A stretch of DNA of 64,000 nt from Gammaproteobacteria bacterium (GTDB lineage Bacteria; Pseudomonadota; Gammaproteobacteria; Eutrophobiales; Eutrophobiaceae), in assembly GCA_041689615.1 (NCBI GenBank), contig JBDNFW010000033.1, positions 258,520 through 322,519 of the forward strand. Direction: 5' to 3'. The translations under genes were made by a program, and so were the position numbers. Every line of letters starts with the position of its first letter. The first letter of the stretch is position 1. Under the pieces are notes generated by a model. It saw nothing but the letters and a program-made list of their open reading frames with translations. It was not told the origin of the DNA and ran no database searches. Below are positions 16,844-50,135 of the stretch, in pieces.

Positions 16844-16854
16844 CTGAGTACCTC

Positions 16855-17090
16855 CAAAAATGCACTTTTCCCGCGATCGCCGCGTCGGCTCCGTACTTGA
16901 ATACTCACAGAGTACGATGTTCTCATGTATGTTTTATACATTGCGATTCTCGGCAATTGCTCCCGGCATTGCTCTACCTCCTGCATCCATGCAGTCGTCC
17001 GCGTATGCATCCTTGCACTTATGTACAGGGATGTACTGTATACCGGTTTTGCAGGAGCAAAAACCGGACACGAAAAAATCACTATTTCTT
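16855..17090. repeat. intercistronic repeat element copy A (pfaD/pfaA spacer), flanked by 11-bp inverted repeats CTGAGTACCTC (16844-16854) and GAGGTACTCAG (17091-17101)
   Basis: Shares the core aaaaatgcactttt...atactcacagagtacgatgt.ctcatgtat with the copies at 49991-50120 and 32480-32592. The flanking inverted repeat contains the pfaA SD (GGAGG). Confidence 0.6.
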
Positions 17091-17128
17091 GAGGTACTCA
17101 GTTTTTTAATGTGTTTCTTTGACATAAC

Positions 17129-18817
17129 TTACTCAGATAAATAACTCTTAATTGTTTCTTGTTGCATAGGATGGAATTGCGTTAATGCAACAGGAAGTTC
17201 AACACCTTGCTTAAGCAAACCATTAATTCGATATAAAACAGCAGCACCAAATAAAATATTCATTGCCACAGTCACTGCATTTCTATTATTTGTTTCAGAT
17301 AAAAAAGTTTCGCGCGTCCATTCATTAAACGCTCCCATTGCTGGGCCACACCAAACTTGATAATCAACTTGGCGATCTTCAACGCCGGCATTTGCCCAAC
17401 GTGAAGACAGTCCTAAATACCATCGAAAAATTAATGCCATTTTATGTTTTGCATCTTTATGCGCTTTTTCAACTTGACGCGGATCTCGTTCAGTAAAAAA
17501 TTCTTCTGTCTTTTGCCATACTTCAGCTAATGACATTTTAAAAATTGTTTTTTCCAGATTCGCTTTTTCTGTTTCAGAAATTTCTTCTATCGATCCGTAT
17601 TTTTTATAAATGTCATAAAGCTTATTACCGCGCATCGCAAACATGGTGCCGCGTTTTAATACTTGTAACTTCACACCCATTTCAAACATATCTACTGCTG
17701 GTGCCATAGTGACGTCAGCTTGTTCTGCATTGGCTAACATTTCTCTAACAATGTCAGAGGAACCTGATTCTTTGCAGGCTTGATTAACAGTACCGGTAAC
17801 AATGTAAGCCGCACCCATAGCAAACGCACCTAATGCTGAAGCAGGTATTGCAATCCCTCCGGCAGCACCAACACGCAGTGGTTTTTCATAATTATGTTTT
17901 GCCTGATATTGATCGCGTAGTGATAACATCGTTGGTAATAATGTAATAGCAGGTCGATTGTCTGTATGACCACCCGAGTCAGCTTCGACCGTTAAGTCTT
18001 GCGCCATCGGAATATGTTTGGCCAAGTCTGCTTCTTCTTTTGTTATCGAACCCTGCTCTAATAATTTTTCCAATAATTTTTCAGGTGGAGGACTAAACCA
18101 TTTGCTTGCAAGCTCTACCCTCGATGCCTTAGCTATGATCCTATTAGGAACAATAATATTACCCTGCTTATCTTTATGAATTCCTTTCACTCGATAACGT
18201 ACAACTGGCAAAGTCAGTTTCATATAAGCAGATGTTTCAACCAGTGTAACTCCGTATTTTAAATAGAGATCAACAACCGCATCTTCATGTCCTATTTCAT
18301 TCGGGCTATAAATAAGGTTAAAGCAAAATGTTTTATCGCCTAAGGAAGTTTGCAGACGTTTAATTGCTGTTTCTATTTCAGTTAAAGACAAACCCGCTGC
18401 ACCGAATGATGCCAACATGCCTTCGCTTGCTAACGCTTCAACCAATTCAACAGAAGCAATGCCATTTGCCATTGAGCCTGCCATATAAGGATAATCAATT
18501 TGATAATCCTGACAAAAATTCTGATCACCTAAGGCTTTAATGGTTTGTGCCGAAGCAATGCCACGTAAACGATACTGTTTGTCGTCTTTTTGATAGTCAT
18601 CACCCTGACTATCAAACTGAATAGATCCACCCAAGGCAATTGCAGATCTGGATTTATTTTCAACTATACAAAATGGCACATCTAACTGATAAAGCTGTTC
18701 AGGCAATTTTTCCAAATCAGATAGACTAGCGCGACTATCCGATTGCCAAACATTTTGAGAATGACGCTTTGTTTCCGTCGAACGAGACGGACTAATAATT
18801 TCTGGTATGGAACTCAC
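17129..18817 (-). CDS. pfaD: PUFA synthase enoyl reductase PfaD (nitronate monooxygenase-like fold)
   Basis: 562 aa. YPYMAGSMANGIASVELVEALASEGMLASFGAAGL region is typical of PfaD-type ER. It lies upstream of and co-directional with pfaA. Confidence 0.85.
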   Translation of the reverse strand: MSSIPEIISPSRSTETKRHSQNVWQSDSRASLSDLEKLPEQLYQLDVPFCIVENKSRSAIALGGSIQFDSQGDDYQKDDKQYRLRGIASAQTIKALGDQNFCQDYQIDYPYMAGSMANGIASVELVEALASEGMLASFGAAGLSLTEIETAIKRLQTSLGDKTFCFNLIYSPNEIGHEDAVVDLYLKYGVTLVETSAYMKLTLPVVRYRVKGIHKDKQGNIIVPNRIIAKASRVELASKWFSPPPEKLLEKLLEQGSITKEEADLAKHIPMAQDLTVEADSGGHTDNRPAITLLPTMLSLRDQYQAKHNYEKPLRVGAAGGIAIPASALGAFAMGAAYIVTGTVNQACKESGSSDIVREMLANAEQADVTMAPAVDMFEMGVKLQVLKRGTMFAMRGNKLYDIYKKYGSIEEISETEKANLEKTIFKMSLAEVWQKTEEFFTERDPRQVEKAHKDAKHKMALIFRWYLGLSSRWANAGVEDRQVDYQVWCGPAMGAFNEWTRETFLSETNNRNAVTVAMNILFGAAVLYRINGLLKQGVELPVALTQFHPMQQETIKSYLSE

Positions 18818-19107
18818 TGTATTTAATCAATAAACTCTTCTGAATATGTAATGGCGGAAAGGACAATGCTTATTTATTTACATCCATCTGTTCTGATTGT
18901 AATGTGCGCGTCCTGAACAGCCCTAATTATTGAATAATATCATTTTTTTCGGGCAAAACCTTGTAGCATCGATGCTCTAAACGATTAAGATTTAGTGACT
19001 ACTTGTTCAAAATGAATGCTGAATTTAGTTATTTTGATGTGATTAACTAAAAAATAAAACCACAAAACATACTAAACCATTGTTTTTATAAGAGATATTT
19101 ATTTTTC

Positions 19108-20175
19108 ATGAAATCCAGAGAAGAATTTCAAACCAAACTTGATGACCTTGCCTATCAAAACAAGATTTTGCAGCATGTCTCTCGAACTTTTGCCTTAACT
19201 ATTCCGCAATTGCCTGAACCATTAAGCACGGTCGTAGCAAATGCCTACCTTTTGTGTCGTATTGCCGACACGATCGAAGATGATAAGAGCATGTCGGCTG
19301 AACAAAAAAAGGAATCTGCCGAGCTTTTTATCAAAGTTGTTAAGGAAAATGCTGAAGCTGAAGCATTTGCCGAAACCCTGTTTCCATTATTGTCACCGAC
19401 AGCAACTGAAGCTGAACATGATCTGATTTCCAATACGTCTCCTGTAATTAGAATTACTCACAGTTTCAATCAACGCCAACGCGCTGCTCTAGAACGTTGT
19501 GTCAAAATCATGGCCGATGGCATGGTAATGTATCAGGATGCTGAAACCCTTGATGGCGTTTCCGATCAGAGGGATATGGATCAATACTGTTATTACGTTG
19601 CGGGCGTTGTTGGCGAAATGTTGACTGAACTTTTCTGCGATCATTCGCCTGAAATCGATGCACATCGTGATGAGATGATGAAATTGGGAGTGTCATTTGG
19701 TCAGGGTTTGCAAATGACCAATATATTGAAAGATATCTGGGAAGATCATGAGCGCGGAGCTTGCTGGTTACCTCGCGATGTATTCGAAAAATACGGTATC
19801 GATATTCGTCATAAAGTACCAGGTAAAATGGGTGAAGGTTTTAATGAAGCTTTAATAGAATTGCTCGGTGTTGCCCATGCACATGTCTATAACGCTTTGC
19901 GCTATACTTTAATGATTCCCGAAAAAGAAAAAGGATTACGAAAATTCTGTTTGTGGGCCTTGGGTATGGCGGTATTAACTCTAGAAAAGATCAGACGACA
20001 GCCTGATTTCACGGAAGGTCAGCAAGTCAAAATCAGTCGTCGCAGTGTTAAAGTCACCCTCTTTTTGACAAGTCTTTTCGTTGGCCAAAATAGAATATTA
20101 AGTTATCTTTTCCAATTCAGTGGACGTCGTTTGCCTATGGCAAATATTCATGCGAAACTCTGCCAAAATCAGTGA
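19108..20175 (+). CDS. sqs: squalene synthase, single-enzyme eukaryote-like type
   Basis: 355 aa. SRTFALTIPQL...YLLCRIADTIEDD and YCYYVAGVVGEMLT match squalene/phytoene synthase motifs. It is the first gene of the hopanoid operon. Confidence 0.8.
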   Translation: MKSREEFQTKLDDLAYQNKILQHVSRTFALTIPQLPEPLSTVVANAYLLCRIADTIEDDKSMSAEQKKESAELFIKVVKENAEAEAFAETLFPLLSPTATEAEHDLISNTSPVIRITHSFNQRQRAALERCVKIMADGMVMYQDAETLDGVSDQRDMDQYCYYVAGVVGEMLTELFCDHSPEIDAHRDEMMKLGVSFGQGLQMTNILKDIWEDHERGACWLPRDVFEKYGIDIRHKVPGKMGEGFNEALIELLGVAHAHVYNALRYTLMIPEKEKGLRKFCLWALGMAVLTLEKIRRQPDFTEGQQVKISRRSVKVTLFLTSLFVGQNRILSYLFQFSGRRLPMANIHAKLCQNQ

Positions 20176-20274
20176 TATACATGACTATAACGCTGAAACA
20201 ACAAGGAGAATAAGGCGGCTTTCGACAGGGCAGTATGGTCTATCTGACTTCTTGCCCCACCTGTATTAAATAAC

Positions 20275-22221
20275 ATGACTTTTGAAACTAATAACGATAA
20301 TACGCCCAATCCAACGCTCGGAGAGTCGAACTCGAAGAAGCCTGCGATTAATTTAGACGAAGCGATTCAATCTGCTAAAAATAAATTACTCGAGCAACAA
20401 CAAGATGATGGGCATTGGGTCTATGAACTCGAAGCTGATTGCACTATTCCTGCTGAATATATATTAATGAATCATTTCGTCGATGAAGTCGATGATGATA
20501 CAGAACAAAAAATTGCCCAATACTTGCGTGACCAACAAAATGAAGATGGTGGTTGGTCGCTTTATACCGCTGGTGATTTTGATATTAGTTGTGCGGTAAA
20601 AAGCTACTACGCATTAAAAATCGTTGGTGATAATCCTCAAGAAGAACATATGGTCCGCGCAAGGAATATCATTTTAAATCATGGTGGCGCTGCTCGTAGT
20701 AATGTCTTTACCCGAATTTTGATGGCTCTGTTTCAACAAGTACCGTGGCGTGCGACACCTTTTATTCCGGCTGAAGTAATCATTCTTCCAAAGTGGTTTC
20801 CGTTTCATATCGACAAAGTATCTTATTGGTCACGTACAGTCATGGTGCCATTGTTTATTTTGTGCACCATAAAACCAAAAGCTGTAAACCCACGTGGTGT
20901 TGATATAAGAGAACTTTTTATAATACCGCCTGAAGATGAACAAAATTATTTTAAAGTAACAACTCCGCTGACTCGAGCGTTTCTAATACTCGACCACTTA
21001 GGTCGTTTAGCAGAAAAGATCGTACCTAAATTTGTACGACAATATTCTATTGATAAATGCGAACAATGGTCTCTTGCTCGAATGAACGAAGAATTTGGTA
21101 TCGGCGGTATTTTTCCTGCCATGGTTAATGTGTTTGAATCTTTAGTTATTCTTGGTTATAAAAAAGATCACCCGGCACGAATACAGGCACGACAAGCTAT
21201 TGATGCTTTACTAGTCAAGCGCGGTAACACGATGTATTGCCAACCTTGTGTTTCTCCTGTTTGGGATACTTGTTTAGCGGCGCAATCTCTTATCGAAACA
21301 GAAAATCAAAACGTCAGTACAGAAATAGAACATTCACTTGACTGGCTTAAGGATAGACAACTTAGCGATGAACCCGGTGACTGGCGCATCCCCAGAGCCA
21401 ATCTTGCTGGCGGCGGCTGGGCCTTTCAATATAGTAATTACTACTTCCCTGACCTCGATGATACTTCCATGGTGGCCTGGGCGATGCACAGAACTGGAAA
21501 TGATAAATATTCAGAACCGATTCAACGTGCAGCAAACTGGGTTGCCGGTATGCAATCGAATGGTGGTGGTTTCGGATCGTTTGAAGTAAATAACACGCAG
21601 TATTATTTAAACGCGATTCCTTTTGCGGATCATGGTGCTTTATTAGATCCACCCACAGCCGATGTGACCGGACGTGTTATTGCATTACTTAGTCTTGCCG
21701 ATAAAGAAAAATATAGCTCTGTTATTAAAGATGCGATTAATTTTATAAAATCTGATCAGGAAGAAGACGGTTCCTGGTTTGGTCGTTGGGGTACGAATTA
21801 TATATACGGCACCTGGTCGGTGCTAACCGCACTTGAACTTGCTGATGAAGATCTACAACAAGACTATATAAGAAAAGCTGTCTCGTATTTACAAGGCATG
21901 CAAAATGAAGATGGTGGTTGGGGCGAAAGTAATGATAGCTATTATCCTCCAAAACATTATCGTCCTTTTGAAAGCACCGCATACCAAACAGCATGGGCAT
22001 TACTTGCTTTATTGGCGGTTGGAGAAGCTGAAACAGAAACGGTTAGAAAAGGGATTGATTATTTGATCTCTAATCAATCCAATGATGGTCATTGGTATAA
22101 TGATAGTTATACTGCTCCAGGTTTTCCTCGCGTTTTCTATTTAAAATATCACGGCTACACAAAATATTTTCCGCTTTGGGCGTTAGCTCGTTACAGAAAC
22201 CTGTTGCACAATAAGGTTTGA
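20275..22221 (+). CDS. shc: squalene-hopene cyclase
   Basis: 648 aa. Multiple QxxxGxW (QW) repeats (QNEDGGW x3). DLDDTSMV matches the DxDDTA catalytic motif. Confidence 0.9.
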   Translation: MTFETNNDNTPNPTLGESNSKKPAINLDEAIQSAKNKLLEQQQDDGHWVYELEADCTIPAEYILMNHFVDEVDDDTEQKIAQYLRDQQNEDGGWSLYTAGDFDISCAVKSYYALKIVGDNPQEEHMVRARNIILNHGGAARSNVFTRILMALFQQVPWRATPFIPAEVIILPKWFPFHIDKVSYWSRTVMVPLFILCTIKPKAVNPRGVDIRELFIIPPEDEQNYFKVTTPLTRAFLILDHLGRLAEKIVPKFVRQYSIDKCEQWSLARMNEEFGIGGIFPAMVNVFESLVILGYKKDHPARIQARQAIDALLVKRGNTMYCQPCVSPVWDTCLAAQSLIETENQNVSTEIEHSLDWLKDRQLSDEPGDWRIPRANLAGGGWAFQYSNYYFPDLDDTSMVAWAMHRTGNDKYSEPIQRAANWVAGMQSNGGGFGSFEVNNTQYYLNAIPFADHGALLDPPTADVTGRVIALLSLADKEKYSSVIKDAINFIKSDQEEDGSWFGRWGTNYIYGTWSVLTALELADEDLQQDYIRKAVSYLQGMQNEDGGWGESNDSYYPPKHYRPFESTAYQTAWALLALLAVGEAETETVRKGIDYLISNQSNDGHWYNDSYTAPGFPRVFYLKYHGYTKYFPLWALARYRNLLHNKV

Positions 22222-22931
22222 GTAAGCTTGGTATTATTGCAGCCCTACCTGCTGAAGCAGCTTGTCTATATAATAAAAAACTAACTGTTCTTTCACCCAT
22301 AGAAATTCAGAAAGATGTCTTTTTGTGTTTATCAGGTATGGGGTATGAAGCAGCTTGTGGAGCTGCAAAAAAGTGTCTGGATTTCAAAGTAGATGCCTTA
22401 ATCAGTTGGGGGGTTGCTGGCGCAATAGAGTCTTCACTTAACTCGGGTGATTTAATTTTCGCTGATTCGATAATTGCTCAAGATAAAACTTTTCAAACAT
22501 CGACTGAATGGAAAAATAAATTACTGGCACACTTTCAGAAAACCCATACTAATGTGTTAAGTAGCGATATTGCTTCAAGTAAAGAGATATGTGCCTTAAC
22601 AACCGATAAAAATAATTTATTACATAAAACAGGCGCTGGCGCTGTCGATATGGAAAGTGCGGCTATTGCAGAAATAGCCATTAATAATCATCTCGATTTT
22701 TTGGTCATTCGTGCCATTGCTGACAAGGCTAATACCGTTATTCCAGAAGCGGTGTTAAAACACACAGATAATCTGGGCAATCCTGAAATATTAAAATTTG
22801 TATTGTCGTGTATTTTTAAGCCAGCACAAATTCGGGAGATTTTTATATTGGCAAAAAGCTACAAAATAGCTTTAAAAACATTAAGCAATATCGCCTCAGA
22901 TTTAAAAAAACAGAATTTCTTTTATACATAA
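22218..22931 (+). CDS. hpnG: hopanoid-associated phosphorylase (PNP/MTA nucleosidase family), HpnG-like
   Basis: 237 aa, N-terminus MSKLGIIAALPAEA. The TTG start overlaps the shc stop (gtTTGA). Hopanoid cluster context. Confidence 0.65.
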   Translation: MSKLGIIAALPAEAACLYNKKLTVLSPIEIQKDVFLCLSGMGYEAACGAAKKCLDFKVDALISWGVAGAIESSLNSGDLIFADSIIAQDKTFQTSTEWKNKLLAHFQKTHTNVLSSDIASSKEICALTTDKNNLLHKTGAGAVDMESAAIAEIAINNHLDFLVIRAIADKANTVIPEAVLKHTDNLGNPEILKFVLSCIFKPAQIREIFILAKSYKIALKTLSNIASDLKKQNFFYT

Positions 22932-23001
22932 CCTGGCCGCTTGTTATAAAATCTAAGCTGGTTTATAAGGAAACATAATCCCCCACTAGAAAGATATTAA
23001 T

Positions 23002-23748
23002 ATGAAAATAAGCAAAGAACAAATTGAAGAGTTTAAATCCACCGGCTTTCTCGTTATTCGTAAGTTGTACGATACGGAAAGAATGAAGGAAATTATTACC
23101 TGGACAGAAGAAGTACGCAATTATCCTGAAGTCCCTGGCAACGTCATGATGTATTTTGAACAGAGTAAATTAGAACCGGGAAAAAGAATTATATCCCGTA
23201 TAGAAGATGTCGAACCTTTCCATCAAGGATTCAGTGAGCTTTTTATGCGCGGTGAGATACAGCAAATTACATCTCAATTATTCGATGATAAGGCAATTTT
23301 GTTTAAGGATAAAATAAATTTCAAGATGCCGGGTGCAGATGGTTTCAAAGCGCATCAGGATGTACAGGCCGGCTGGGATCGTTATTCCAAGTTACATATC
23401 ACTGCTTTAGTAAGCGTTGATCCTTCCACCATTGAAAATGGCTGTCTGGAAGTGGCTAATGGTTATAATAATAAAGGACTTATAGGAGAACAGTGGGCAC
23501 CATTAGAAGAAGATGGCCTAGACTATATCGCACTACCAACAGAACCGGGTGATGCTGTTTTCTTTGATTCTTATGCCCCTCACCGTTCAAAAGCAAACCT
23601 GAGTAATGGTCAACGCCGCGTTCTGTATGTCACATACAACGCTGCGGCCGAAGGTGACCATCGTAGAAAATATTATGATGACAAACGTCTTAGCTATCCA
23701 CCAGACATTGAACGGGACACGGACAAAGAATACATATTCAGAGTTTAA
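23002..23748 (+). CDS. PhyH-family Fe(II)/2-oxoglutarate dioxygenase, uncharacterised, embedded in the hopanoid operon
   Basis: 248 aa. HQD (HxD) followed by a downstream His (APHRS) and an Arg, the typical phytanoyl-CoA dioxygenase facial triad arrangement. Confidence 0.6.
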   Translation: MKISKEQIEEFKSTGFLVIRKLYDTERMKEIITWTEEVRNYPEVPGNVMMYFEQSKLEPGKRIISRIEDVEPFHQGFSELFMRGEIQQITSQLFDDKAILFKDKINFKMPGADGFKAHQDVQAGWDRYSKLHITALVSVDPSTIENGCLEVANGYNNKGLIGEQWAPLEEDGLDYIALPTEPGDAVFFDSYAPHRSKANLSNGQRRVLYVTYNAAAEGDHRRKYYDDKRLSYPPDIERDTDKEYIFRV

Positions 23749-23763
23749 TCGATATAACTAAAA

Positions 23764-27371: not shown

Positions 27372-27410
27372 GACTCAAATAAAAATGCACTATTTTAAAA
27401 AGACTCTTTT

Positions 27411-27453
27411 AAAAAAAGCCTTTCCTAAAAACACAACGTATTTTTAGGAAAGG
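27411..27453 (-). terminator. rho-independent terminator hairpin (13-bp perfect stem cctttcctaaaaa/tttttaggaaagg), followed by a T-run on the minus strand and preceded by an A-run
   Basis: Perfect inverted repeat at 27419-27453 in the convergent spacer between hpnA and the minus-strand MnhD-like gene. Confidence 0.5.
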
Positions 27454-27622
27454 TGCGCCATCCATTGCGCGGGTTCATCCGTGACTGTTTCCATACAAGA
27501 ATATACGTCCTTGTGAGTAGAACTATAAATGTATTAATCGCGAATAGATATTATCGCAAAAGAGGACATGCAGTGAGTTAGGGTCTACTCACAAATAGGG
27601 AGAGCTAAAGATGAGCCTTTGT

Positions 27623-30978: not shown

Positions 30979-32463
30979 TTATTTAGTAAATAAATCTTTA
31001 GCGATGGCATTAGCCATATCAACATTAAAAGAAGAATCAAGTCCAAAATAAATATTGGCAACAACAAATAGAGATAATGCAAAAAATAATAAGTATGGCG
31101 TTTTCTGATCTTTATCTAATACGATAATTTCTTTTTCAGATGTTTTAAAATAAGCAACCTCAACAAACTTCCAGATATACATAATGGCTAACACAGATGA
31201 AAAAACAATAACTATCACGAGACCCCAGTAACCCGCTTCAAATGATGCTTTAATCAAGTACCATTTACTAACAAAACCAGCTGTCATGGGTACGCCGATC
31301 AAACTTAATCCGGAAATGAGAAAAGAAAGCATCAGTAAAGGCATTTTTTTAGCCAAACCTGCAAGCTGAGAAATTGAATCCGTCTTGCTATAAAAGATGA
31401 TTGTGACTACCGATAAAAACAGGGTTACTTTAATAATGGCATGATTAAAAATATGAATCAGGCCAGCAGCAAGTCCTGCTTCGGTTGCCAATGAAATACC
31501 TAATAACATATAGCCCAATTGCGCAATACTGGAATAAGCTAATAAACGTTTCAAACTATCTTGTTTAATTGCCAAATAAGAGCCATATAAAATTCCAGCA
31601 CAGGCTAATATCATTAATAAATAATTCAATGTCTCCTGAAAAAAGACATAGTCATGGCCAAATGTTGAATAAATAAATCTTATAAGAACATAGATAAAAA
31701 CTTTGGTCGTCGTGCCTGCAAGAAAAGTAGAGACTATTGACGGCGAATAGCTATAAGCATCGGGCAACCATAAATGCAGAGGAAAAATAGCAGCTTTTAT
31801 TCCAATACCTATGACAAAAAATACCAACGCTATCGTTAATGTCTTCGTATTTTCAACATCTGGCAAACGTTGAAATATATCCGCCATATTTAATGTGCCG
31901 GTAACAACATAAAGTAACCCAACAGCGATCAAAATAAAACTGGCGCCAATCGTTCCATAGATAAGATATTTAAAAGCAGCATATAAACAACGCTTATCTT
32001 TGCCAATACTAATCATAGCGTAAGATGATAGTGAAGCTATTTCTATAAAGACAAATAAATTAAACGCATCACCAGTCATAATGACGCCCAATAAACCGGT
32101 CAAATTTAACAAGAACGCCGTGTAAAATAAATAAAGACGATCAGATGAAATTTCATTCGCAATACTCGCTTTTGCACCGAGCAAAACAATTGCGGCGACA
32201 CCATTAACAATGAGCAACATAAATACCGTCAGCTTATCTAGCCGATATTCAATCCCCCAGGGACTAAGCCAACCACCAAGCGCATATGAAATAACACCTT
32301 CAGTTAAAACTTGGTCAAATAAAATGCAAGAGATAACAAAGGATAAGACACTAACCAGTGCTGTTAACAACCAACTTAATGTACCTTGACGTAAAATGAC
32401 ACATAAGGGTGCAGCTATTAAAGGTACAATTACTTGTAATACAGGCAAATGAGAACTAATCAC
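30979..32463 (-). CDS. MnhD/NuoM-family antiporter-like subunit (GTG start)
   Basis: 494 aa. WLPDAYSYSPSIVSTFLAGTTTKV is an MrpD/NuoM hallmark. Confidence 0.7.
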   Translation of the reverse strand: MISSHLPVLQVIVPLIAAPLCVILRQGTLSWLLTALVSVLSFVISCILFDQVLTEGVISYALGGWLSPWGIEYRLDKLTVFMLLIVNGVAAIVLLGAKASIANEISSDRLYLFYTAFLLNLTGLLGVIMTGDAFNLFVFIEIASLSSYAMISIGKDKRCLYAAFKYLIYGTIGASFILIAVGLLYVVTGTLNMADIFQRLPDVENTKTLTIALVFFVIGIGIKAAIFPLHLWLPDAYSYSPSIVSTFLAGTTTKVFIYVLIRFIYSTFGHDYVFFQETLNYLLMILACAGILYGSYLAIKQDSLKRLLAYSSIAQLGYMLLGISLATEAGLAAGLIHIFNHAIIKVTLFLSVVTIIFYSKTDSISQLAGLAKKMPLLMLSFLISGLSLIGVPMTAGFVSKWYLIKASFEAGYWGLVIVIVFSSVLAIMYIWKFVEVAYFKTSEKEIIVLDKDQKTPYLLFFALSLFVVANIYFGLDSSFNVDMANAIAKDLFTK

Positions 32464-32479
32464 CCAGGACTCCTCTGAA

Positions 32480-32592
32480 AATGTCTTTTATTCGCGATAG
32501 CGGCGTCAGCACTGTGCTCGAATCCTCATGTATTACATATACACTGCGGTTCTGTGCGCAGTGCTTCCTTACTCTCACAAAAAAATCCTATC
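32480..32592. repeat. intercistronic repeat element copy B (mnhC/mnhD spacer), flanked by 14-bp inverted repeats AGGACTCCTCTGAA (32466-32479) and TTCAGAGGAGTCCT (32593-32606)
   Basis: Core cgcgatagcggcgtcagcactgtgctcgaat.ctcatgtat...ccttactc.cacaaaaaaa is shared with copies A and C. It lacks the 18-bp acTCacaGAgtacgatgt hairpin segment. Confidence 0.6.
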
Positions 32593-32952
32593 TTCAGAGG
32601 AGTCCTTAAACTCCTGTTGTATTTCATCATCTTCAACTGAACCAAAGGCATGATAAAGCCGAATAACGATGGCGAGCCCTAATGCGGTCGTTGATATGCC
32701 CACGACAATCGCAGTCAGAATTAACACATGTGGTAAGGGACTCGAATAAAGCGTATTTGATTCATTTAGAATCGGGGCTGTACCACCCGTAATTTTTCCC
32801 ATTGAGATAAATAGAATAAAAATGGATGTTTGAAAGATATTGATGCCTATTAATTTCTTTACCAGATTCTTATGCGCAATAACAATATACAGCCCTATCA
32901 TCATTAATATGACGACGACCCAGTAATTAAACGCCCCCAGAATATCCATCAA
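32575..32952 (-). CDS. MnhC/NuoK-like small antiporter subunit
   Basis: 125 aa, 3 TM, NuoK/MrpC-like profile. Confidence 0.6.
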   Translation of the reverse strand: MMDILGAFNYWVVVILMMIGLYIVIAHKNLVKKLIGINIFQTSIFILFISMGKITGGTAPILNESNTLYSSPLPHVLILTAIVVGISTTALGLAIVIRLYHAFGSVEDDEIQQEFKDSSEDRIFL

Positions 32953-36407: not shown

Positions 36408-36410
36408 GAA

Positions 36411-39987: not shown

Positions 39988-40005
39988 AAATAATATCTCT
40001 TTAAA

Positions 40006-40857: not shown

Positions 40858-40883
40858 GAGGAAGATGTGTTAAACAATCTTTC

Positions 40884-42078: not shown

Positions 42079-42153
42079 AAGTTCCCTCCATGCTGTTGTC
42101 CACTAAAGACAAACCTCTACCCAAAGCTTCTAGGGAAATTTCCAGAAACTATC

Positions 42154-45100
42154 CTAGAACTCATCCCACTCACTATCGCTACCAGCACCGGCGGCTTTGG
42201 ATTGTACTTTAGCCGCTGATTTCTTAGGTTGTGATTTTTCTGGAGTCCATGGTCGTTCATCTCTACTACGGCGTTCACCTGCAGCTGCTGTGCTACCGCC
42301 TGTTGAATTATTTCCTGTATTGAAAAATGATATCAACTCAGTTAAACCTTTGGCCTGCTCATCCATGGATTCACTAGCCGCTGCCGCTTCTTCAACCAAT
42401 GATGCGTTTTGTTGCGTCATCTCGTCCATTTGCGCTATGGCTTTATTAATCTGGTCTATACCGGTTGATTGCTCACTACTGGCTGCAGCTATCTCGGCAA
42501 TGATATCGTTAACTTTTTGCACTGAATCAACAATTTGTCCTAAGTTGGTACCGGATTCATTAACAAGTTTTGAACCTTCTTCAACTTTCTGTACGCTATC
42601 ATTAATCAGTGTCTTGATTTCCTTAGCAGCTCCGGCACTACGTTGAGCCAGATTTCGAACTTCGGCAGCAACAACCGCAAAGCCTCGACCCTGTTCACCT
42701 GCTCGGGCTGCTTCAACTGCGGCATTTAAAGCCAACAAATTAGTCTGGAAAGCAATCTCATCAATAACACCTATGATATCTGCAATCTTCTTGCTCGCCT
42801 GATTGATTTCACTCATTGCGGCAATCGCATCAGTCACTACAGCTCCACCTTTTTCAGCTTCAGTTCGTGCGCCCGCAGCCAATTGATTTGCCTGCTGTGC
42901 ATTGTCTGCATTTTGTTTCACTGTGCCAGTTAGCTCTTCAATACTGGAGGCTGTTTCTTCTAACGAAGACGCCTGCTCTTCAGTACGTTGACTTAGATCC
43001 AGGTTGCCCTGTGCAATTTCATTCGCAGAAGTATTAATAGAGCTTGCACTTTCACGAATCTCACCTACCATTTTCATTAGATTGGAAATTGAAGTATTCA
43101 CCGCACCTTGCATCGTCAAGAACTGACCTTCGAATTCACCATTCATCGTCTGTGTTAAATCACCATCAGACAAACTTTCAATAACACGAGTTGACTCATT
43201 GATAGGCACAACAACTGCATCCATCAAATTGTTAATCGATGAAGCCAATCTCTTTGTAAAACCGGAAAAGTCATCGACTTCAAGTCGAGTACCCAATTCA
43301 CCATTAGTTGCAGCATTGATAAGATTTTCTATTTGTCGCTCTGCATTTTTTTCCTCAGTAATATCACGCCATTCAACCATGTTGCCCATGTAGTTGCCTT
43401 CGGGATCTGTAATGGCAGTGGCATTCAATCCAAACTCCATGCCACCTACTTTTATTTCAGCATTGGCAGGCAAACTAGCCACATCACCTAACAAACGTCG
43501 TTGATGTGCCGGATTTTTATGAAACTGATCTATACATTCGCCTACCAACTTATCAACATTCAGACTAGGCCAGATAGAACGTAATTCAGTTTGTCGATTT
43601 CTTAACATTTCAACAACAGCAGGGTTAACATAAGTGATATTCAAATCCTCATCACAAAGCATCAAGTTAGCCTGTGCGCCATCAACAGCCGATTGCAAAC
43701 GTGCCACTTCAAGATCACGTTGACGCATTGCAGTCACGTCTTCCCATTCCAGTGTTGTACCGATGTAAGTACCGTTCAGATCCATTTGTGCTGAAACCAC
43801 CAGTTTGAACTTGAGATCAAGAATTTCAATATCGGTTGTGTAAGGTAGGTTCTTTGGATCATCTAATAATTTACGTTGATGCGCTGGGTTTTTATGAAAC
43901 ACATCGATACACGTACCCATAACATTGTTTGCATCAAAACCAGGCCAATTCTCAGCGAATTTAGCCTGATGTTTTGCCAATAATGCGTTAGTTGATTCAT
44001 TAACATAAGTAATGATGAAATCACGGTCGATCATGATCATTGGTGATTGCGCACCATCAACAGCGACTTGTAAGCGAGCTGAGGCTATTTGTTGTTGACG
44101 TAATGCGGTACCATCAGTTGCATATTTGACAACTTTAAAAGTATTTCCATTCATATCAAAAACGGCGTTGTAACTTGCATTGAGCCAAAGCTCTTCACCT
44201 TTCTTATTTAAACGTTTGAATTGACCGCTCTGTGATTCGCCGTTACTTAACTTTTTCCAAAAATCCTTGTATTCCTGACTTCCTGCATAGGTAGCATCAA
44301 CAAACATACTGTGATGTTTTCCTTTGATCTCTTCTAACGTGTAACCAACTGCATTAGTAAAATTTTCATTCGCAGTAATAATCGTACCATCGAGATTAAA
44401 CTCGATCGCTGCTTGAGTTTTACTTATAGCGTCCAACTTTCCTGAAAAATCGGCATACTCAAGTTTTTGAGCGGTCACGTCAGTCGCAAACTTCACAACT
44501 TTATAAGCCTTTCCATCTTTAAAGACTGGGTTGTAAGAGGCATTAATCCAGATTTCTTTACCACCCTTTCCGATACGTTTGTATTCACCGGCATCGAACT
44601 CACCACGATTCAGTTTTTCCCAGAATTGTTTGTATTCCGGACTTGCTGCATAAGTAGGCTCAACAAACATACTGTGATGCTTACCTTGAATCTCTTCCAA
44701 ACTATAATCTATGACATTTAGAAAATTTTCATTCGCTGTGATGACTGTACCATCCAGATTGAATTCAATCGTTCCCTGTACCTTATCTATTGCGGTAATC
44801 TTGCCCAACAACTCTTCATGTTGTTTTTTAAGACTATCCAATTCTTGTTTCAATGTTTCGTTGTTATCTAAATTATCCATTTTTTGATCCTCTTCTTTCA
44901 TTTCTTCATTTCCCGAATTTTCGTATGCACCCAACATTGCTGATGCGACCGTGTTTAAAGCATTTGTCCAGGCCTGTTTAACATCATCGGTCCACAGGTC
45001 TCCTGCAAATTCACTCATTACTTCAAGTAATACTTCTGCTACTGCCGGATACTGCTCGGCAACAACACCATATTTCTGATGATTCTTTCCCAGATTACTT

Positions 45101-45336
45101 AGGGCTGGCCCTAATACATCGGGCTTACGAATGTTATTAACTACCAGCGCCAATCCGGACAAGAGTTTCTTTTCTTGCTCTTTCTGATCAACATTGGCAA
45201 ACATCGGTTTCACATCCGGGTAGCGTGAAAACAATTCACTGTAGAATTTTTCTACCAATGCCTCACCCTGAGGTGCAAGTTTGGCAAAGGTGTCTTCGAC
45301 TAATTTAATCTGTCTTTGGGTCAGCTTTTTGCTCAT
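42154..45336 (-). CDS. soluble chemoreceptor: N-terminal Vgb/Hmp-type globin, 4 PAS domains (two tandem pairs), MCP signalling domain
   Basis: 1060 aa. Globin domain (KNHQKYGVVAEQYPAVAEVLLEVM, proximal His context). PAS repeats (GTIEFNLDGT.ITANENF; FHKNPAHQR). MCP tip [32 protein letters not shown]. No TM segments are evident. Confidence 0.85.
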   Translation of the reverse strand: MSKKLTQRQIKLVEDTFAKLAPQGEALVEKFYSELFSRYPDVKPMFANVDQKEQEKKLLSGLALVVNNIRKPDVLGPALSNLGKNHQKYGVVAEQYPAVAEVLLEVMSEFAGDLWTDDVKQAWTNALNTVASAMLGAYENSGNEEMKEEDQKMDNLDNNETLKQELDSLKKQHEELLGKITAIDKVQGTIEFNLDGTVITANENFLNVIDYSLEEIQGKHHSMFVEPTYAASPEYKQFWEKLNRGEFDAGEYKRIGKGGKEIWINASYNPVFKDGKAYKVVKFATDVTAQKLEYADFSGKLDAISKTQAAIEFNLDGTIITANENFTNAVGYTLEEIKGKHHSMFVDATYAGSQEYKDFWKKLSNGESQSGQFKRLNKKGEELWLNASYNAVFDMNGNTFKVVKYATDGTALRQQQIASARLQVAVDGAQSPMIMIDRDFIITYVNESTNALLAKHQAKFAENWPGFDANNVMGTCIDVFHKNPAHQRKLLDDPKNLPYTTDIEILDLKFKLVVSAQMDLNGTYIGTTLEWEDVTAMRQRDLEVARLQSAVDGAQANLMLCDEDLNITYVNPAVVEMLRNRQTELRSIWPSLNVDKLVGECIDQFHKNPAHQRRLLGDVASLPANAEIKVGGMEFGLNATAITDPEGNYMGNMVEWRDITEEKNAERQIENLINAATNGELGTRLEVDDFSGFTKRLASSINNLMDAVVVPINESTRVIESLSDGDLTQTMNGEFEGQFLTMQGAVNTSISNLMKMVGEIRESASSINTSANEIAQGNLDLSQRTEEQASSLEETASSIEELTGTVKQNADNAQQANQLAAGARTEAEKGGAVVTDAIAAMSEINQASKKIADIIGVIDEIAFQTNLLALNAAVEAARAGEQGRGFAVVAAEVRNLAQRSAGAAKEIKTLINDSVQKVEEGSKLVNESGTNLGQIVDSVQKVNDIIAEIAAASSEQSTGIDQINKAIAQMDEMTQQNASLVEEAAAASESMDEQAKGLTELISFFNTGNNSTGGSTAAAGERRSRDERPWTPEKSQPKKSAAKVQSKAAGAGSDSEWDEF

Positions 45337-45380
45337 ATCAATATCCTTGGCATACTATAAAATAACCATTTTTAAATTAA

Positions 45381-45824
45381 TTAAACTGCAATTTTATGTT
45401 CAATTTCATCATAGGCCGCCAGCATTATTTCGGCGACGGTGTTCAGTGCATTGGTCCAGGCTTGTTTAACGTCATCCGTCCATAAGTCACCCGCCATGTC
45501 GCTCATGACACTCAGTAATGTCTCTGCCACTACCGGATAATGTGCGGCAACTGCACCGTAGCCTTGATGTTTTTTACCGAGATTACTCAAGGCAGGGCCT
45601 AAGTCCTCTGGTTTACGTAAGTTATTAATCACTAGCACCAGACCCGACAGAAGCTTCTTTTCTTGTTCCTTTTGATTAACATTCTTAAACATCGGCTTCA
45701 CTTCAGGATGACGAGAAAATAATTCACTGTAAAATTTTTCAACCAGAACCGCACCCTGAGGCGCAAGTTTACCGAACGTTTCTTCGAGTAGTTCTATTTG
45801 TGTCTCGTTTAGTGGTTCGTTCAT
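45381..45824 (-). CDS. single-domain haemoglobin (Vitreoscilla Vgb / flavohaemoglobin N-domain type)
   Basis: 147 aa. About 75 % identical to the globin domain of the adjacent MCP. KKHQGYGAVAAHYPVVAETLL aligns with Vgb [20 protein letters not shown]. Confidence 0.8.
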   Translation of the reverse strand: MNEPLNETQIELLEETFGKLAPQGAVLVEKFYSELFSRHPEVKPMFKNVNQKEQEKKLLSGLVLVINNLRKPEDLGPALSNLGKKHQGYGAVAAHYPVVAETLLSVMSDMAGDLWTDDVKQAWTNALNTVAEIMLAAYDEIEHKIAV

Positions 45825-45868
45825 TTTTTTGCTCTCTGATTCGACTAAATTATTATTCTGATTAATGT

Positions 45869-46411
45869 TTAGTGTGTTGTTGGACTTTTTTTTTGAGCAT
45901 TAGCTGAATTAACAACTTGAGTAATATCAATATCTGCATCAATAAGATGATCAATATCCAGCAAGATCAACATCTTTTCATCAACCGTTGCCAGTCCTTT
46001 GACAAACTTTGTATTAACGGCTTTACCAAAATCTGGCGATGGTTTTAATTGTTCTTCGGTCAAGTTATAAACATCGGATACGGCATCAACAATAAAACCG
46101 ATAGTTTTTTCCTTTTTCTCGGTTTTTGTCTTTAAGACGATAACAACTGTCGTATTGCTATATTCAACTTGTTCAAGTTCAAATCGACTTCGAAGATCGA
46201 CAATTGGCACTATCGTGCCACGCAGGTTCATAACGCCTTGTATATATTTAGGCGTATTTGGAATTTCTGTAGCACTTTCCCAACCTTTGATTTCCTGAAC
46301 CCTTAAAATATCCACACCATATTCTTCACCCGCTAACATAAACGTCAGAAATTGATTGGCATTATCTGAATCTAATTCAACAACACTTTCTTCTCTAACT
46401 TCAGCGTTCAT
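45869..46411 (-). CDS. cheW: CheW coupling protein
   Basis: 180 aa. GVMNLRGTIVPIVDLR CheW motif. Confidence 0.85.
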   Translation of the reverse strand: MNAEVREESVVELDSDNANQFLTFMLAGEEYGVDILRVQEIKGWESATEIPNTPKYIQGVMNLRGTIVPIVDLRSRFELEQVEYSNTTVVIVLKTKTEKKEKTIGFIVDAVSDVYNLTEEQLKPSPDFGKAVNTKFVKGLATVDEKMLILLDIDHLIDADIDITQVVNSANAQKKSPTTH

Positions 46412-46423
46412 AATTCCTTACTC

Positions 46424-48493
46424 CTATGCTGCTTGGTTATTCATAACAGATGATGTTTTATATTCTTCTTGCTTACGATAGAGACCTAATAGACTTGTTA
46501 CATCTAGAATCATTGCGACGGTACCATCACCTAAAATAGTCGCACCAGATACGCCTTCTACCTTTTGGAAATTTGTTTCCAGACTTTTTATAACAACTTG
46601 TTGCTGAGCAAGTAAGTCGTCAATAAACAAACCTACTTTTTGACCTTCTGATTCAACAACAACTAATAGACCATTTACAAGTTCTGTATTATTACTAGCG
46701 ACATTAAATATTTCATGTAAACGTAATATAGGTAGATAATCTTCACGTAACCTATAAACCTCTGCATCACCTGTAATCGATTTAGTGTGCTCTTCTTTTA
46801 TTTGTATTGATTCGATAATTGAAACTAAAGGAATAATGTAAGTTTGAGTACCTACTTTAATGAGTTGTCCATCGAGTATTGCCAGTGTTAATGGTAAGCG
46901 TATTGTAAAGACTGAACCTTTACCTTCTTCTGATTTAACTTCGACAGTTCCACCAAGGTCATGAATATTACGTTTGACAACATCCATACCGACGCCGCGA
47001 CCGGATACATCACTAACTACTTCAGCGGTTGAAAAACCGGCATGGAAAATAAGTTCATTAATTCTTCTATCCGATAGTGTTTCGCCTTCCTTAACGAGTC
47101 CACGTTCAATTGCTTTACTTAGAATTCGTTCTCTATTAAGGCCAGCGCCGTCATCTTCAATATCAATAACGATATTGCCACCCTCATGATAAGCATTAAG
47201 ATGTATTGTGCCTGTTTCCGGCTTACCTGCAGCAAGACGAACTTCAGGCATTTCGATGCCATGATCGAGTGAATTTCTTACCAGATGAACAAGTGGATCA
47301 CCAATCTTCTCCATGACTGTCTTATCAAGTTCTGTTCCTTCACCTGACAATTTAAGCTCGATTTTTTTATTCAACTTGCTACTTAAATCATGAACCAGTC
47401 GAGGAAATCGGTTAAACGAAAAACTGATTGGCAACATACGAATTTGCATCACATTTTCTTGTAGTTCACGCGTATTTCGTTCCAACTGTTTTAGACCATC
47501 GCTTAACTTCTCAACATCTTTCATATCAAAGTCTTCACCAAATTGTCCTAGCATCGATTGAGTGATAACCAGTTCGCCGACCATATTAATCAATGTATCA
47601 ATTTTATCTGTATTAACTCGTATAGAAGATGATTCGCTACTAGCACCATGGCGGTCAGTACTTCTTCTATCTCCTGCTCTTCTATCTCCTGCTCTTCTAT
47701 CTTCTGCTGATGCTACTTCTTTTACTTGATTATCAGTTGATGGCTTATTGTCATTATTTGTTTCAATTGAATCACTAGAACTAATTTGAGTGATAATTAA
47801 CTCGCAATCATCTTCTACCCATTCAAAGACTTCTTTCACTTTATCTTCGTCAACATCCGTCGTAAGAGTTAGATCCCATGACAAATAACATTCTTCAGTA
47901 TCGTATTTATCAAAGGGAGGCAGATTATCAATATGAAGCTCGGTGGATAATTCACCAAACTCTTCCAGTTCGCGGAACATGCGTAAAGGGTCATTGCCTG
48001 TCTGGAACATATGATGATGAGGTACAAAATTAATATGCCAACCAGAACCGGCTAGACTACTGTCACTACTTTCACCAGCGTCCACTTCAGTCTGAGAATT
48101 TGATTCAACTCCCAATGCCTTTTCTAGTTCACTCTGGACTGACTTGATATGCTCTTCGTCTATTTCTGTTTTATCTCGTGCTGCTGATAGCATCTCACGT
48201 AAGCAATCAACTGAAGTTAGTAATAAATTGACCTCTTCCTGATTCAGCTCATGTTTCCCTGAACGAACATCATCAAGTAGCGTTTCAAGAACATGCGTAA
48301 AACCGGTTATCTCATTAAAACCAAAACTACCACTACCACCTTTGATAGAATGCGCGGCACGAAATATTTTGTTTATTTCTTCATCACCAGGATCTTTATA
48401 ATCGAGCTCAAGAAGCTCGGTTTCCATAATTTCCAAGCCTTCAAAACTTTCTTCAAAGAAGACACCGTGAAACTGAGTTAGGTCAATCGACAT
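46424..48493 (-). CDS. cheA: CheA histidine kinase (Hpt-linker-dimerisation-HATPase-CheW)
   Basis: 689 aa. Hpt motif FRAAHSIKGGSGSFGF. HATPase G-boxes. C-terminal CheW-like domain. RRAGDRRAGDRRSTDR low-complexity linker. Confidence 0.9.
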   Translation of the reverse strand: MSIDLTQFHGVFFEESFEGLEIMETELLELDYKDPGDEEINKIFRAAHSIKGGSGSFGFNEITGFTHVLETLLDDVRSGKHELNQEEVNLLLTSVDCLREMLSAARDKTEIDEEHIKSVQSELEKALGVESNSQTEVDAGESSDSSLAGSGWHINFVPHHHMFQTGNDPLRMFRELEEFGELSTELHIDNLPPFDKYDTEECYLSWDLTLTTDVDEDKVKEVFEWVEDDCELIITQISSSDSIETNNDNKPSTDNQVKEVASAEDRRAGDRRAGDRRSTDRHGASSESSSIRVNTDKIDTLINMVGELVITQSMLGQFGEDFDMKDVEKLSDGLKQLERNTRELQENVMQIRMLPISFSFNRFPRLVHDLSSKLNKKIELKLSGEGTELDKTVMEKIGDPLVHLVRNSLDHGIEMPEVRLAAGKPETGTIHLNAYHEGGNIVIDIEDDGAGLNRERILSKAIERGLVKEGETLSDRRINELIFHAGFSTAEVVSDVSGRGVGMDVVKRNIHDLGGTVEVKSEEGKGSVFTIRLPLTLAILDGQLIKVGTQTYIIPLVSIIESIQIKEEHTKSITGDAEVYRLREDYLPILRLHEIFNVASNNTELVNGLLVVVESEGQKVGLFIDDLLAQQQVVIKSLETNFQKVEGVSGATILGDGTVAMILDVTSLLGLYRKQEEYKTSSVMNNQAA
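47637..47702 (-). repeat. 15-bp tandem repeat (ctcctgctcttctat, about 2.5 copies) encoding the RRAGD repeats in the CheA linker
   Basis: Direct tandem copies are visible in the DNA. Confidence 0.7.
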
Positions 48494-48551
48494 TATTTCT
48501 CTTCCTTAATGTATTCTTCATTTAAAATTCTTCCCTTAATAATTTTTCTAA

Positions 48552-48932
48552 TCAGGCAATAACTTTTTTAATGGTTGCGAGCAATTGATCTGGATTAAAT
48601 GGTTTAACTAACCAGCCTGTCGCTCCAGCAGTCTTTCCTTTGCCTTTCATATCGGCTGATGATTCAGTAGTTAACATCAACATAGGCGTATGTTTATAAT
48701 TAGGTAACTTACGTAACTCCTGTATTAATGTGATGCCATCCATATTCGGCATATTGACATCCGTCAATACTGCGTCAGAATTACTAGCTTTCGCTTTGTT
48801 TAGAGCATCCACTCCATCCACAGCTTCTATCACATCGTAACCTGCTCCTTTTAATGTGAATGCCACCATTTGGCGCATTGAAGCTGAATCATCTACTGTA
48901 AGAATTGTTGCCATAATAATTGATATCCTCAA
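48552..48932 (-). CDS. cheY: CheY response regulator
   Basis: 126 aa. Intact DD (TVDDSASM), phospho-Asp context LTDVNMPNMDG and KP. Confidence 0.9.
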   Translation of the reverse strand: MRISIIMATILTVDDSASMRQMVAFTLKGAGYDVIEAVDGVDALNKAKASNSDAVLTDVNMPNMDGITLIQELRKLPNYKHTPMLMLTTESSADMKGKGKTAGATGWLVKPFNPDQLLATIKKVIA

Positions 48933-49321
48933 TAATCAATTTAAATCCATTAAAAAACGTTGCATTTTACAGCGCTACATTCTTTATCGGCATTCAGTTT
49001 CTTTTCTTTAACGCTTGAATCAACAAAATTAAGAAAAATAAATAATCCTGCTTTTGAATGTACCTGCATAAAGTTTGCCAATTAGAGTCAAGATTAATCC
49101 TTTTCAAATGTACTTATAATTCATGTGCTTACGAATACAGGATGTAGAAGGTGAAATCTAACTTTGAGAAGATGTCAAATAGACGTCACCATCGGGAAAA
49201 TACTTACCGGCTTTGTCTATCAATAATGCTAAATGTTTTAGCAAAGCTCTGTGCGTATTACCGAACATGGAATGATGAATATAGAGTAATCACCTAAAGA
49301 GATTTCTGATAGAATGGGCGC

Positions 49322-49987
49322 ATGCTTAAAGTACTCAGTAACAGTAAATTTTTAATCCCAGCGATGGTCATCCTCGCCGTATTAGCGGCAAGCAGTGGCT
49401 TTTATATCTCGTTAAAGCAATCACAAAATCAACAGCAACCAGACTTTGGATCGTCGCCAAATATCGAAGGCTTATTCTGGCCAAACCCGAAACAAATACT
49501 CGATTTCAATACACTGGATCAAACAGGTAATACATTTGGACTTGAACAGGTAAAAGGCAAATGGTCGTTTGTTTTCTTCGGCTACACACACTGTCCCGAT
49601 GTCTGTCCTGTTACTATGTCAGTCATGAGCGAAACATATAAGCAACTTTCAGTTGATTACGATGACTTACAAATTCTCTTTGTCAGTGTTGATCCTGAAC
49701 GCGATACCACAGAAAAGCTGGCTCAATATGTTTCCTATTTTAATGAAGATTTTATTGGCTTGGGTGGTGATACTGAAAAAGTTGACAGCTTAACGAAACA
49801 AATTGGCGTAGCGTACTATCTAAATAATGAGGAACAAGAAGATGGGTATTTAGTTGATCATTCAGCATCAATTTTTGTCTTTGATCCTAAAGCGCGCTTA
49901 GTTGGAAAACTATCAGCACCACATGAGTCAGCAAAGGTTATCGAGCAGTTCACTAATATAAAAAACTTCATTGACGGAACCCTATAA
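49322..49987 (+). CDS. sco1: SCO1/SenC copper chaperone (thioredoxin-like)
   Basis: 221 aa. N-terminal TM helix. FFGYTHCPDVCP Cu-binding CxxxC motif. Confidence 0.8.
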   Translation: MLKVLSNSKFLIPAMVILAVLAASSGFYISLKQSQNQQQPDFGSSPNIEGLFWPNPKQILDFNTLDQTGNTFGLEQVKGKWSFVFFGYTHCPDVCPVTMSVMSETYKQLSVDYDDLQILFVSVDPERDTTEKLAQYVSYFNEDFIGLGGDTEKVDSLTKQIGVAYYLNNEEQEDGYLVDHSASIFVFDPKARLVGKLSAPHESAKVIEQFTNIKNFIDGTL

Positions 49988-49990
49988 AAA

Positions 49991-50120
49991 TGCACTTTTT
50001 TCACAATAGCTGTGTCAGTGTCGTGCTCAAATACTCACAGAGTACGATGTCCTCATTTATTATTAATACACTCCGGTTTTCCGCGCGCGCCTTCCTTACT
50101 CGTGCAAAAAAAATTACTAT
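49991..50120. repeat. intercistronic repeat element copy C (sco1/pcuAC spacer), flanked by inverted repeats GGAACCCTATAAAAA (49976-49990, contains the sco1 stop) and TTTTTATAAGGTTCC (50121-50135, contains the pcuAC SD)
   Basis: aaaaatgcactttttt...gtgctcaaatactcacagagtacgatgtcctcat...ccttccttactcgtgcaaaaaaaa matches copies A and B. Confidence 0.6.
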
Positions 50121-50135
50121 TTTTATAAGGTTCCT

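Follow-up and report, generated by a model that had tools for sequence, protein, structure and literature searches.

Small inverted-repeat elements with Shine–Dalgarno motifs in their ends at three gene junctions of a gammaproteobacterial contig: probable diverged copies of a mobile family

How can repeats of 139–258 nt come to lie between, or even inside, tightly packed genes, and where do the inverted arms that bracket them come from? The question is raised by a 64,000-nt stretch of contig JBDNFW010000033.1 (Gammaproteobacteria bacterium, family Eutrophobiaceae, GenBank assembly GCA_041689615.1, positions 258,520 to 322,519 of the forward strand), hereafter the window, in which three such repeats, A, B and C, adjoin a polyketide synthase gene and the gene pairs mrpC/mrpD and SCO1/PCuAC. 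A first-pass annotation of the sequence had proposed that the three are related, that each is bracketed by an inverted repeat unique to its locus, and that these arms arose by inverted duplication of the target. The relatedness is upheld by pairwise nhmmer comparisons (E values of 5e-5 to 3e-13) and by a direct-repeat search that recovers the same pairs, and a hidden Markov model (HMM) of the family described below finds A, B and C as its only three matches in the whole window. The bracketing is likewise present at all three copies, although it is not perfect in C, where a C·A mismatch leaves 14 of 15 positions paired. Only relic or fused open reading frames (ORFs) cross the elements, and no transposase gene lies within them. 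We conclude that A, B and C are very probably old, diverged copies of a MITE (miniature inverted-repeat transposable element) of ~140 nt with optional hairpin modules, whose own terminal inverted repeats (TIRs) had been mistaken for flanking sequence. The earlier likening to ERIC and Correia elements holds in that sense, i.e. as a small palindromic repeat of the MITE kind.

Terminal repeats, target duplications and empty sites

A collection of one genome per species (185,579 species) was scanned with a degenerate pattern for the element core, CTCATNTATN{4,6}ATACAYTNCGNTTYT, which recovered at least 119 loci. All family counts given here (59 full-length copies, 54 copies with gene context, ~90 scorable and 32 aligned copies) were drawn among the matches listed, and greater conservation of the core than of the termini cannot be claimed because the pattern itself required the core. 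Among these matches the metagenome-assembled genomes (MAGs) are labelled Gammaproteobacteria, Nitrospirales/Nitrospirota, Burkholderiales, Methylophilaceae, Rickettsiales, Holosporales, Vampirovibrio and others, and single Nitrospirales chromosomes carry many loci each. The family TIR consensus is GGGCACCTCTAAAAA...TTTTTAGAGGTGCCC, and most copies are in register as (4 nt) GGGCACCTCTAAAAATGCAC ... core ... TCACTATTTTTAGAGGTGCCC (same 4 nt). The arms in the window are diverged forms of these ends, namely GAGTACCTCC in A, GGACTCCTCTGAAAA in B and GGAACCCTATAAAAA in C. An HMM of 141 positions built from 16 clean copies aligns B at positions 2–140 (E = 1.4e-29), C at positions 6–132 and A at positions 3–92, after which the extra modules of A start; the arms, once thought unique to each locus, fall on model positions 1–16 and 126–141. 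Equivalent paired variation of the two arms occurs in other family copies (GGGCATCTC/GAGATGCCC, GGGTACCTC/GAGGTACCC and GGATGCCTC/GAGGCATCC), and the window copies diverge from the consensus by 25–40%. Judged by these alignments, the supposedly locus-specific flanks are the element's own TIRs, diverged from the consensus.

The surroundings of the family copies carry the marks of transposition. An exact 4-bp direct repeat stands outside both TIRs in 30 of the 59 full-length copies, against 0–1 in comparisons offset by 1–4 nt, and since 5-mer matches are absent from the flanks of all 59, the duplication has a length of exactly 4 bp. Most of the 4-mers concerned are AT-rich (TTAA, ATAT, TCAA, TTAT, ATTT and others), and a duplication of this length suggests a DDE enzyme as the mover. 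Site C is empty in four relatives (L003, L004, L128 and L129; SCO1 identity 79–87%), where SCO1 and PCuAC overlap by 14 nt, e.g. ...TTTATCAATGCACAAAATTAA, and none of the four sites holds a GGAACC / GGTTCC arm. Site B is empty in three contigs (L004, L005 and L006) of one relative, MAG PRO17, where mrpC and mrpD overlap in GTGA with no arm (...GAGATAGAGTGATTAG in L004); the same MAG has a family copy at another locus (L030). Since neither arm exists in the empty sites, both arms arrived with the insertion and did not pre-exist it. Taken together, these comparisons indicate that the family is a non-autonomous transposon, i.e. a MITE. A new class of element whose insertion duplicates locus-specific target in inverted form, including the region of the downstream ribosome-binding site, could account for arms of 11–15 bp that are not alike at A, B and C and that contain a Shine–Dalgarno (SD) motif; we nevertheless give it almost no credence, given that both arms are missing from the empty sites, that the TIR consensus of the family aligns with the arms and that direct 4-bp duplications accompany 30 of the 59 copies. 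Two other routes to the arms were also set aside: insertion into an existing palindrome, of which the empty sites show none, and extension of a palindrome into its flanks by template switching, which need not be invoked now that the arms are identified as TIRs.

The whole window gave no Rfam match at gathering thresholds, and a permissive search with a consensus-like copy returned chance-level matches only. No blastn match to the family was found in a plasmid collection, and the single match among viral contigs had flanks without family features and was judged to be chance. Searching the literature for TIR and core strings and by subject turned up no account of the family, which appears to be undescribed and very widely distributed, while the kind of element, a MITE, is ordinary. 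Integron attC sites were considered and ruled out, as the repeats have no core sites and their interior is common to the family. The core contains TCGAATCC, which we take to be a T-loop-like motif; a tRNA-derived origin is mentioned as speculation only.

Gene junctions, Shine–Dalgarno motifs and predicted coupling

Comparison with relatives shows how each insertion altered its junction (Table 1), and three gene models are affected. At A, the polyketide synthases (PKSs) of two relatives begin with MSKKEDKNRMQPLAIVG and MSKKEKNEHTVPLAIVG (pattern MSKKE...PLAIVG), and the window keeps ...GAGTAAGTTATGTCAAAGAAA..., in which the pfaD stop (17131–17129) is followed after 3 nt by the ancestral PKS start (ATG 17125–17123) and the retained ATGTCAAAGAAA. 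From that start a relic leader ORF now runs into the element, and the PKS restarts beyond it as MKPLAIVG (ATG 16843). On this evidence A entered the PKS gene within its ancestral first ~10 codons, and a new start rescued the gene; the intercistronic placement assigned to all three copies does not hold for A. At B, MrpC crosses the arm and extends into the element by 31 nt, reaching 125 aa against 115 aa in the relative, i.e. a gain of 10 residues. At C, SCO1 acquires a new C-terminus and stops at TAA 49985–49987, inside the left TIR; the claim that the upstream arm holds the upstream stop in B and C is borne out here and fails for B, whose TGA (32577–32575) lies 17 nt past the arm. The first ~10 codons of the PKS are lost, and a 63-codon leader ORF now precedes it.

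Table 1. Repeat copies, their arms and adjoining genes in the window (window positions)
Feature	Coordinates	Strand	Details
Copy A, long form	16844..17101	+	~254 nt between family ends 16846-17099; antisense to the minus-strand genes; modules: the optional 20-nt hairpin, plus two additional internal ones (about 16955-17065)
Copy A arms	left 16844-16854; right 17091-17101		inverted match 11/11
SD-to-start stretch of A	16841..16859	-	TIR-borne SD GGAGG, then the new PKS start
Relic leader ORF	16923..17125	-	63 codons + stop; MSKKHIKK (8 codons), then through the upstream arm; TAA inside element A
PfaD-type enoyl reductase	17129-18817	-	neighbour of A
PKS, pfaA-like	10079-16843	-	neighbour of A; 2254 aa
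Copy B, short form	32467..32605	+	139 nt by family ends; antisense to mrpC/mrpD
Copy B arms	left 32466-32479; right 32593-32606		inverted match 14/14
MrpC-like	32575-32952	-	neighbour of B
MrpD-like	30979-32463	-	neighbour of B
Copy C	49976..50134	+	159 nt, with optional 20-nt hairpin module; sense to the plus-strand genes
Copy C arms	left 49976-49990; right 50120-50134		inverted match 14/15, one C·A mismatch
SCO1	49322-49987	+	neighbour of C
PCuAC	50136-50600	+	neighbour of C

Read outward, the TIR ...TTTTTAGAGGTGCCC contains GAGGTG, which agrees with the SD consensus at six bases; in the inward direction, GGGCACCTCTAAAAA provides TAA in one frame and resembles the anti-SD end of 16S rRNA. 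GAGG or GGAG occurs in 79 of 108 outward ends. In agreement with the first-pass annotation, the downstream arm of all three window copies holds a well-spaced SD-like motif of the next gene: GGAGG with a 7-nt spacer to ATG 16843–16841 in A, GAGGAG 6 nt before the MrpD start GTG 32463 in B, and AAGG in the right TIR 5 nt before PCuAC ATG 50136 in C. A and B lie in one orientation relative to transcription and C in the opposite one, so both orientations occur within the window.

The gene context of 54 family copies was taken from naive ORF calls. Between co-directional genes lie 25 of them (18 in the orientation of A and B vs 7 in that of C, p = 0.04), between convergent genes 14 and between divergent genes 5; given the convergent and divergent placements the family is not operon-specific, and the intra-operon bias envisaged earlier does not amount to exclusive placement. 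Outward gene starts fall +1 to +6 nt from the element in 8 cases vs 1.3 expected (Poisson p = 6e-5), and upstream stops concentrate within ~25 nt of the opposite element end. Such a distribution is in keeping with a preference for AT-rich targets together with the persistence of those insertions that the SD made harmless. The same end ('left', as defined by the asymmetric core) faces the start codon in 8 of 9 abutting copies (L022, L030, L070, L084, L086, L088, L112 and window B; not L078); window A also presents its 'left' end to the start, and C is the exception.

These features allow a mechanism to be proposed, in which the SD-bearing inverted ends probably explain how the elements sit between or inside packed genes without silencing the gene downstream. 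A TIR entered by the upstream frame would be anti-SD-like and offer TAA in one frame, so that the frame would end soon after entry, and a TIR leaving the element would, in either orientation, supply a correctly spaced SD to a downstream gene when it lands at or just before the start codon. B and C split the overlapping, translationally coupled pairs mrpC/mrpD (GTGA) and SCO1/PCuAC (14 nt), and A split off the first ~9 PKS codons, with the downstream genes of all three copies now predicted to start 5–7 nt after the SD of a TIR. Scans of the sense strands found no promoter- or terminator-like sites inside the elements, and one transcript is therefore expected to cover them and their genes. Within it the two TIRs are predicted to pair and hide the downstream SD, and ribosomes that enter or cross the upstream arm would melt the stem and expose it, keeping downstream translation coupled. 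The upstream frame does meet the arm in all three copies, since the relic leader ORF passes through it in A, MrpC continues 31 nt into the element in B and SCO1 stops inside it in C.

The sequestering stem anticipated by the first-pass annotation is recovered in the predicted free folds; in a second calculation the ribosome-unwound stretch, everything to the upstream stop plus 12 nt, was kept open. The probability that the SD is unpaired rises from 0.20 in the free fold to 0.50 with the upstream stretch open in A, from 0.00 to 0.50 in B and from 0.26 to 0.69 in C. The original coupling by overlap would, on these predictions, be replaced by coupling through hairpin melting. A coupling role is plausible in this light, while the suggestion of a dedicated translational-coupling device gives way to that of a tolerated by-product of a mobile element. 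Just as possible is cleavage of the stem by an RNase, of the kind reported for Correia elements. The window probably offers a clean natural example of a mobile element that sits inside tight operons without polar damage by carrying its own SD in both ends.

Some further observations concern these junctions and the remainder of the window. Short-read contigs of the source organism (L001 and L002; Logan SRR9199117) terminate within copy C, and a relative's contig (L130; GCA_041601315.1) comes to its end after the first 4 nt of the PKS gene; such repeats appear to interrupt assemblies. In relatives (L131 3178–3275; L133 3190–3260) the spacer between pfaD and the PKS gene is occupied by small palindromes that are unrelated to the family, namely GGCCACAGAG...CTCTGTGGC and a set of three REP-like hairpins, and small repeats seem to have landed at this junction repeatedly. 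Elsewhere, the 3′ end of psd is duplicated (51351–51434 / 52378–52461, 90% identity), as is that of a nuoN-like gene (52324–52385 / 53171–53232, 94% identity), and the two duplications bracket a ~1.7-kb block of small ORFs where L003 and L004 carry other genes (TIR-domain, HD-domain); the block looks like a variable islet. Four tandem ~280-bp repeats (12491–13542, 71–76% identity) inside the 2254-aa PKS are probably carrier-protein domains of a synthase of the polyunsaturated fatty acid type. Finally, a 300-nt direct repeat (44921–45220 / 45409–45708, 73%) reflects the resemblance between the globin domain of a 1060-aa chemoreceptor and an adjoining 147-aa globin gene.

Hairpin structure and the weighing of alternatives

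Each element with its arms folds as one long imperfect hairpin (z-scores on the mRNA strand of -5.8 for A and -8.6 for B). A structure alignment of 32 non-redundant short copies yields a consensus hairpin of 38 pairs, in which 93.3% of the cells are paired and 27 of the 38 pairs are kept although both partners change; no shuffle among 500 equals the values observed, and control alignments with the 3′ partners slid by 1–3 columns are 32–52% paired. G·U (G·T) wobbles are conserved on one strand at columns 59–87, 51–96 and 18–128, the first being U·G in 32 of 32 copies, which hints at one particular strand forming the structure. The hairpin ACTCacaGAGT (18–20 nt) bears on the history of the window copies. 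Its 20-nt version is found in only 5 of ~90 scorable copies, A and C among them, and the stems covary in the other three (ACCCAGAGGGC, GCCCACAGGGC and ACCCACAGGGT). Being rare in the family, it is a module gained by some lineages, and the proposed 18-bp deletion of this hairpin from B can be dismissed, B having the majority state. The extra ~120 nt of A consist of further modules present in other long copies, with an 80% match over 180 nt in one of them (L094).

Several observations weigh against the reading of A, B and C as MITE copies made compatible with their operons by the SD in their ends. None of the three has a recognisable 4-bp duplication, so that the chemistry of insertion there is taken from the family, and loss of the duplication fits the 25–40% divergence from the consensus. 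An autonomous partner with matching TIRs was not found in ~0.9 Mb of fetched loci, in which TIR pairs 0.3–5 kb apart are neighbouring MITEs only, and a solo TIR in L009 has no evident transposase adjoining. The SD content is not higher at start-adjacent ends (7 of 9 vs 72 of 99 elsewhere); the similar content of the two classes makes the SD a family trait, not a locally selected one. The naive ORF calls behind the gene contexts count on the same side, as does the upstream ORF of A, which stops ~90 nt upstream of the new start and makes melting coupling less direct there, and every RNA-level claim derives from thermodynamic prediction. Covariation, moreover, reaches the internal stems (helices 2–4), beyond the TIRs. 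Transposase binding to two duplex ends does not explain this, which suggests that a hairpin of single-strand DNA or of RNA is under constraint; a single-strand hairpin stage or selection at the RNA level may be involved.

The same covariation, together with the optional hairpin modules, is what a structured RNA would show, and the repeats could on that account be dedicated cis-regulatory RNAs, of a coupling or riboregulatory kind, kept for their function and not as mobile DNA. The predicted sequestration of the SD in the terminal stem agrees with such a role, as do the modest orientation bias (18 vs 7) and the constancy of the end that faces the start in 8 of 9 start-adjacent copies. We nevertheless regard it as improbable, in view of the occurrence of both orientations even within the window, the copies between convergent and divergent genes, the differences in presence between close relatives, the existence of target-site duplications and the lack of an Rfam match. 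Mobility by another route, that of REPIN- or PATE-type elements, in which a Y1 HUH transposase (RAYT or IS200/IS605 TnpA) and not a DDE enzyme moves a single-strand hairpin, would accommodate a hairpin that spans the whole element, compensatory changes in its internal stems and a G·T wobble kept on one strand. REPIN/RAYT and IS200/IS605-type systems, however, are not known to make a target-site duplication and insert beside one set sequence of four or five nucleotides, whereas the family duplicates 4 bp that vary in sequence and are AT-rich. On this ground, with no search made for a RAYT or TnpA gene, membership of either group was rejected, and this mode of movement seems very unlikely, slightly more so than a cis-regulatory RNA.

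The MITE reading can be extended to a multi-phylum superfamily with a conserved central hairpin domain of ~90 nt and SD:anti-SD termini, which would be compatible with operons in either orientation, would colonise overlapping junctions and 5′ coding regions through frame ending, a new SD and melting coupling, and would owe its covariation to RNA or single-strand selection. We offer this larger picture tentatively, as a conjecture that may well prove wrong in part or whole. The family is in any case common in uncultivated Gammaproteobacteria and Nitrospirales, with a possible distant link to the little-studied RSA repeats of Escherichia coli.

Comparison with known repeats and coupling hairpins

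Known bacterial MITEs, including Correia/NEMIS in Neisseria, ERIC/IRU in enterobacteria, bcr1 in Bacillus and Nezha in cyanobacteria, are likewise ~100–250 bp long, lack an ORF and have TIRs and target-site duplications. They also share with the family filled and empty sites between relatives, location at gene ends, co-transcription and long hairpins with compensatory changes. The family differs from them in carrying an SD in both TIRs, not a promoter, and in spanning several phyla. Its duplication is 4 bp and variable, whereas Correia and ERIC elements duplicate TA. The Correia interior, GGCGTTG...GCTCAAAG...CTGCGGCTT...CGCCTTG, may have the same motif order as the family. The Correia TIR is 26 bp long and begins TATAGTGGATTAA... 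(PMC5039591), unlike the TIRs of the family, and the different TIRs and the 4-bp duplication place the family outside Correia/NEMIS. Neighbouring ORFs can become fused to bacterial MITEs or be lengthened by them, such elements can bring expression signals, and compensatory changes in their hairpins have been reported (PMC3184786).

A more distant likeness was met in E. coli. In a blastn search of 5426 E. coli genomes with the family consensus, only a repeat in the glrK–qseG spacer matched (2 genomes, E <= 1); no ERIC match was obtained, and membership of ERIC/IRU was rejected. The E. coli repeat shares with the family a ~50-nt core, GTGCTCGAAATC.TCA.GTA...TAC.CTCCGGTTTCTCCGCGC (nhmmer E = 1.4e-5), the same architecture of terminal stem, inner stem and apex, and an apical stem with compensatory changes (CACGTAC...GTACG against CATGTAT...ATACA). 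Its termini (CCTATCC.../...GGATAGG), by contrast, differ from those of the family, are not alignable with them and show no SD-bearing TIR. It occurs at 1–8 places (median 5) in each of the 5426 genomes, and at 6 in ER1709, whose genome has the size of that of K-12 (4.58 Mb) and which we take to be a K-12 derivative. IRU is 127 bp long with 19 copies, against ~150 bp and 5–8 copies for this repeat. The RSA repeats of K-12 are 150/151 bp long and number 6 copies (PMC5172473), and they are also named BEE95 (reference list of PMC3751351). From length and copy number, the glrK–qseG repeat is probably RSA. In NC_000913.3 (2689507–2689670; L127 3508–3671) the glrK–qseG spacer is nearly all a ~150-bp palindromic repeat, unannotated in the current RefSeq record.

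As suppliers of translation signals, the elements recall REP2 of Neisseria, likewise a dispersed repeat that provides a ribosome-binding site to the gene downstream; REP2, unlike the family, lacks both TIRs and the character of a MITE, and it brings a promoter as well as an ATG (PMC3184786). The closest parallel to the predicted mode of action is found in the hairpins of RNA phages and operons whose ribosome-binding sites are unfolded by ribosomes (cf. PMC2978339, for Qβ), in which the SD is paired in the same manner with sequence translated upstream. Compared with those hairpins, the one considered here would have been brought ready-made to its junction by a mobile element, and its coupling of the adjoining genes is a prediction.

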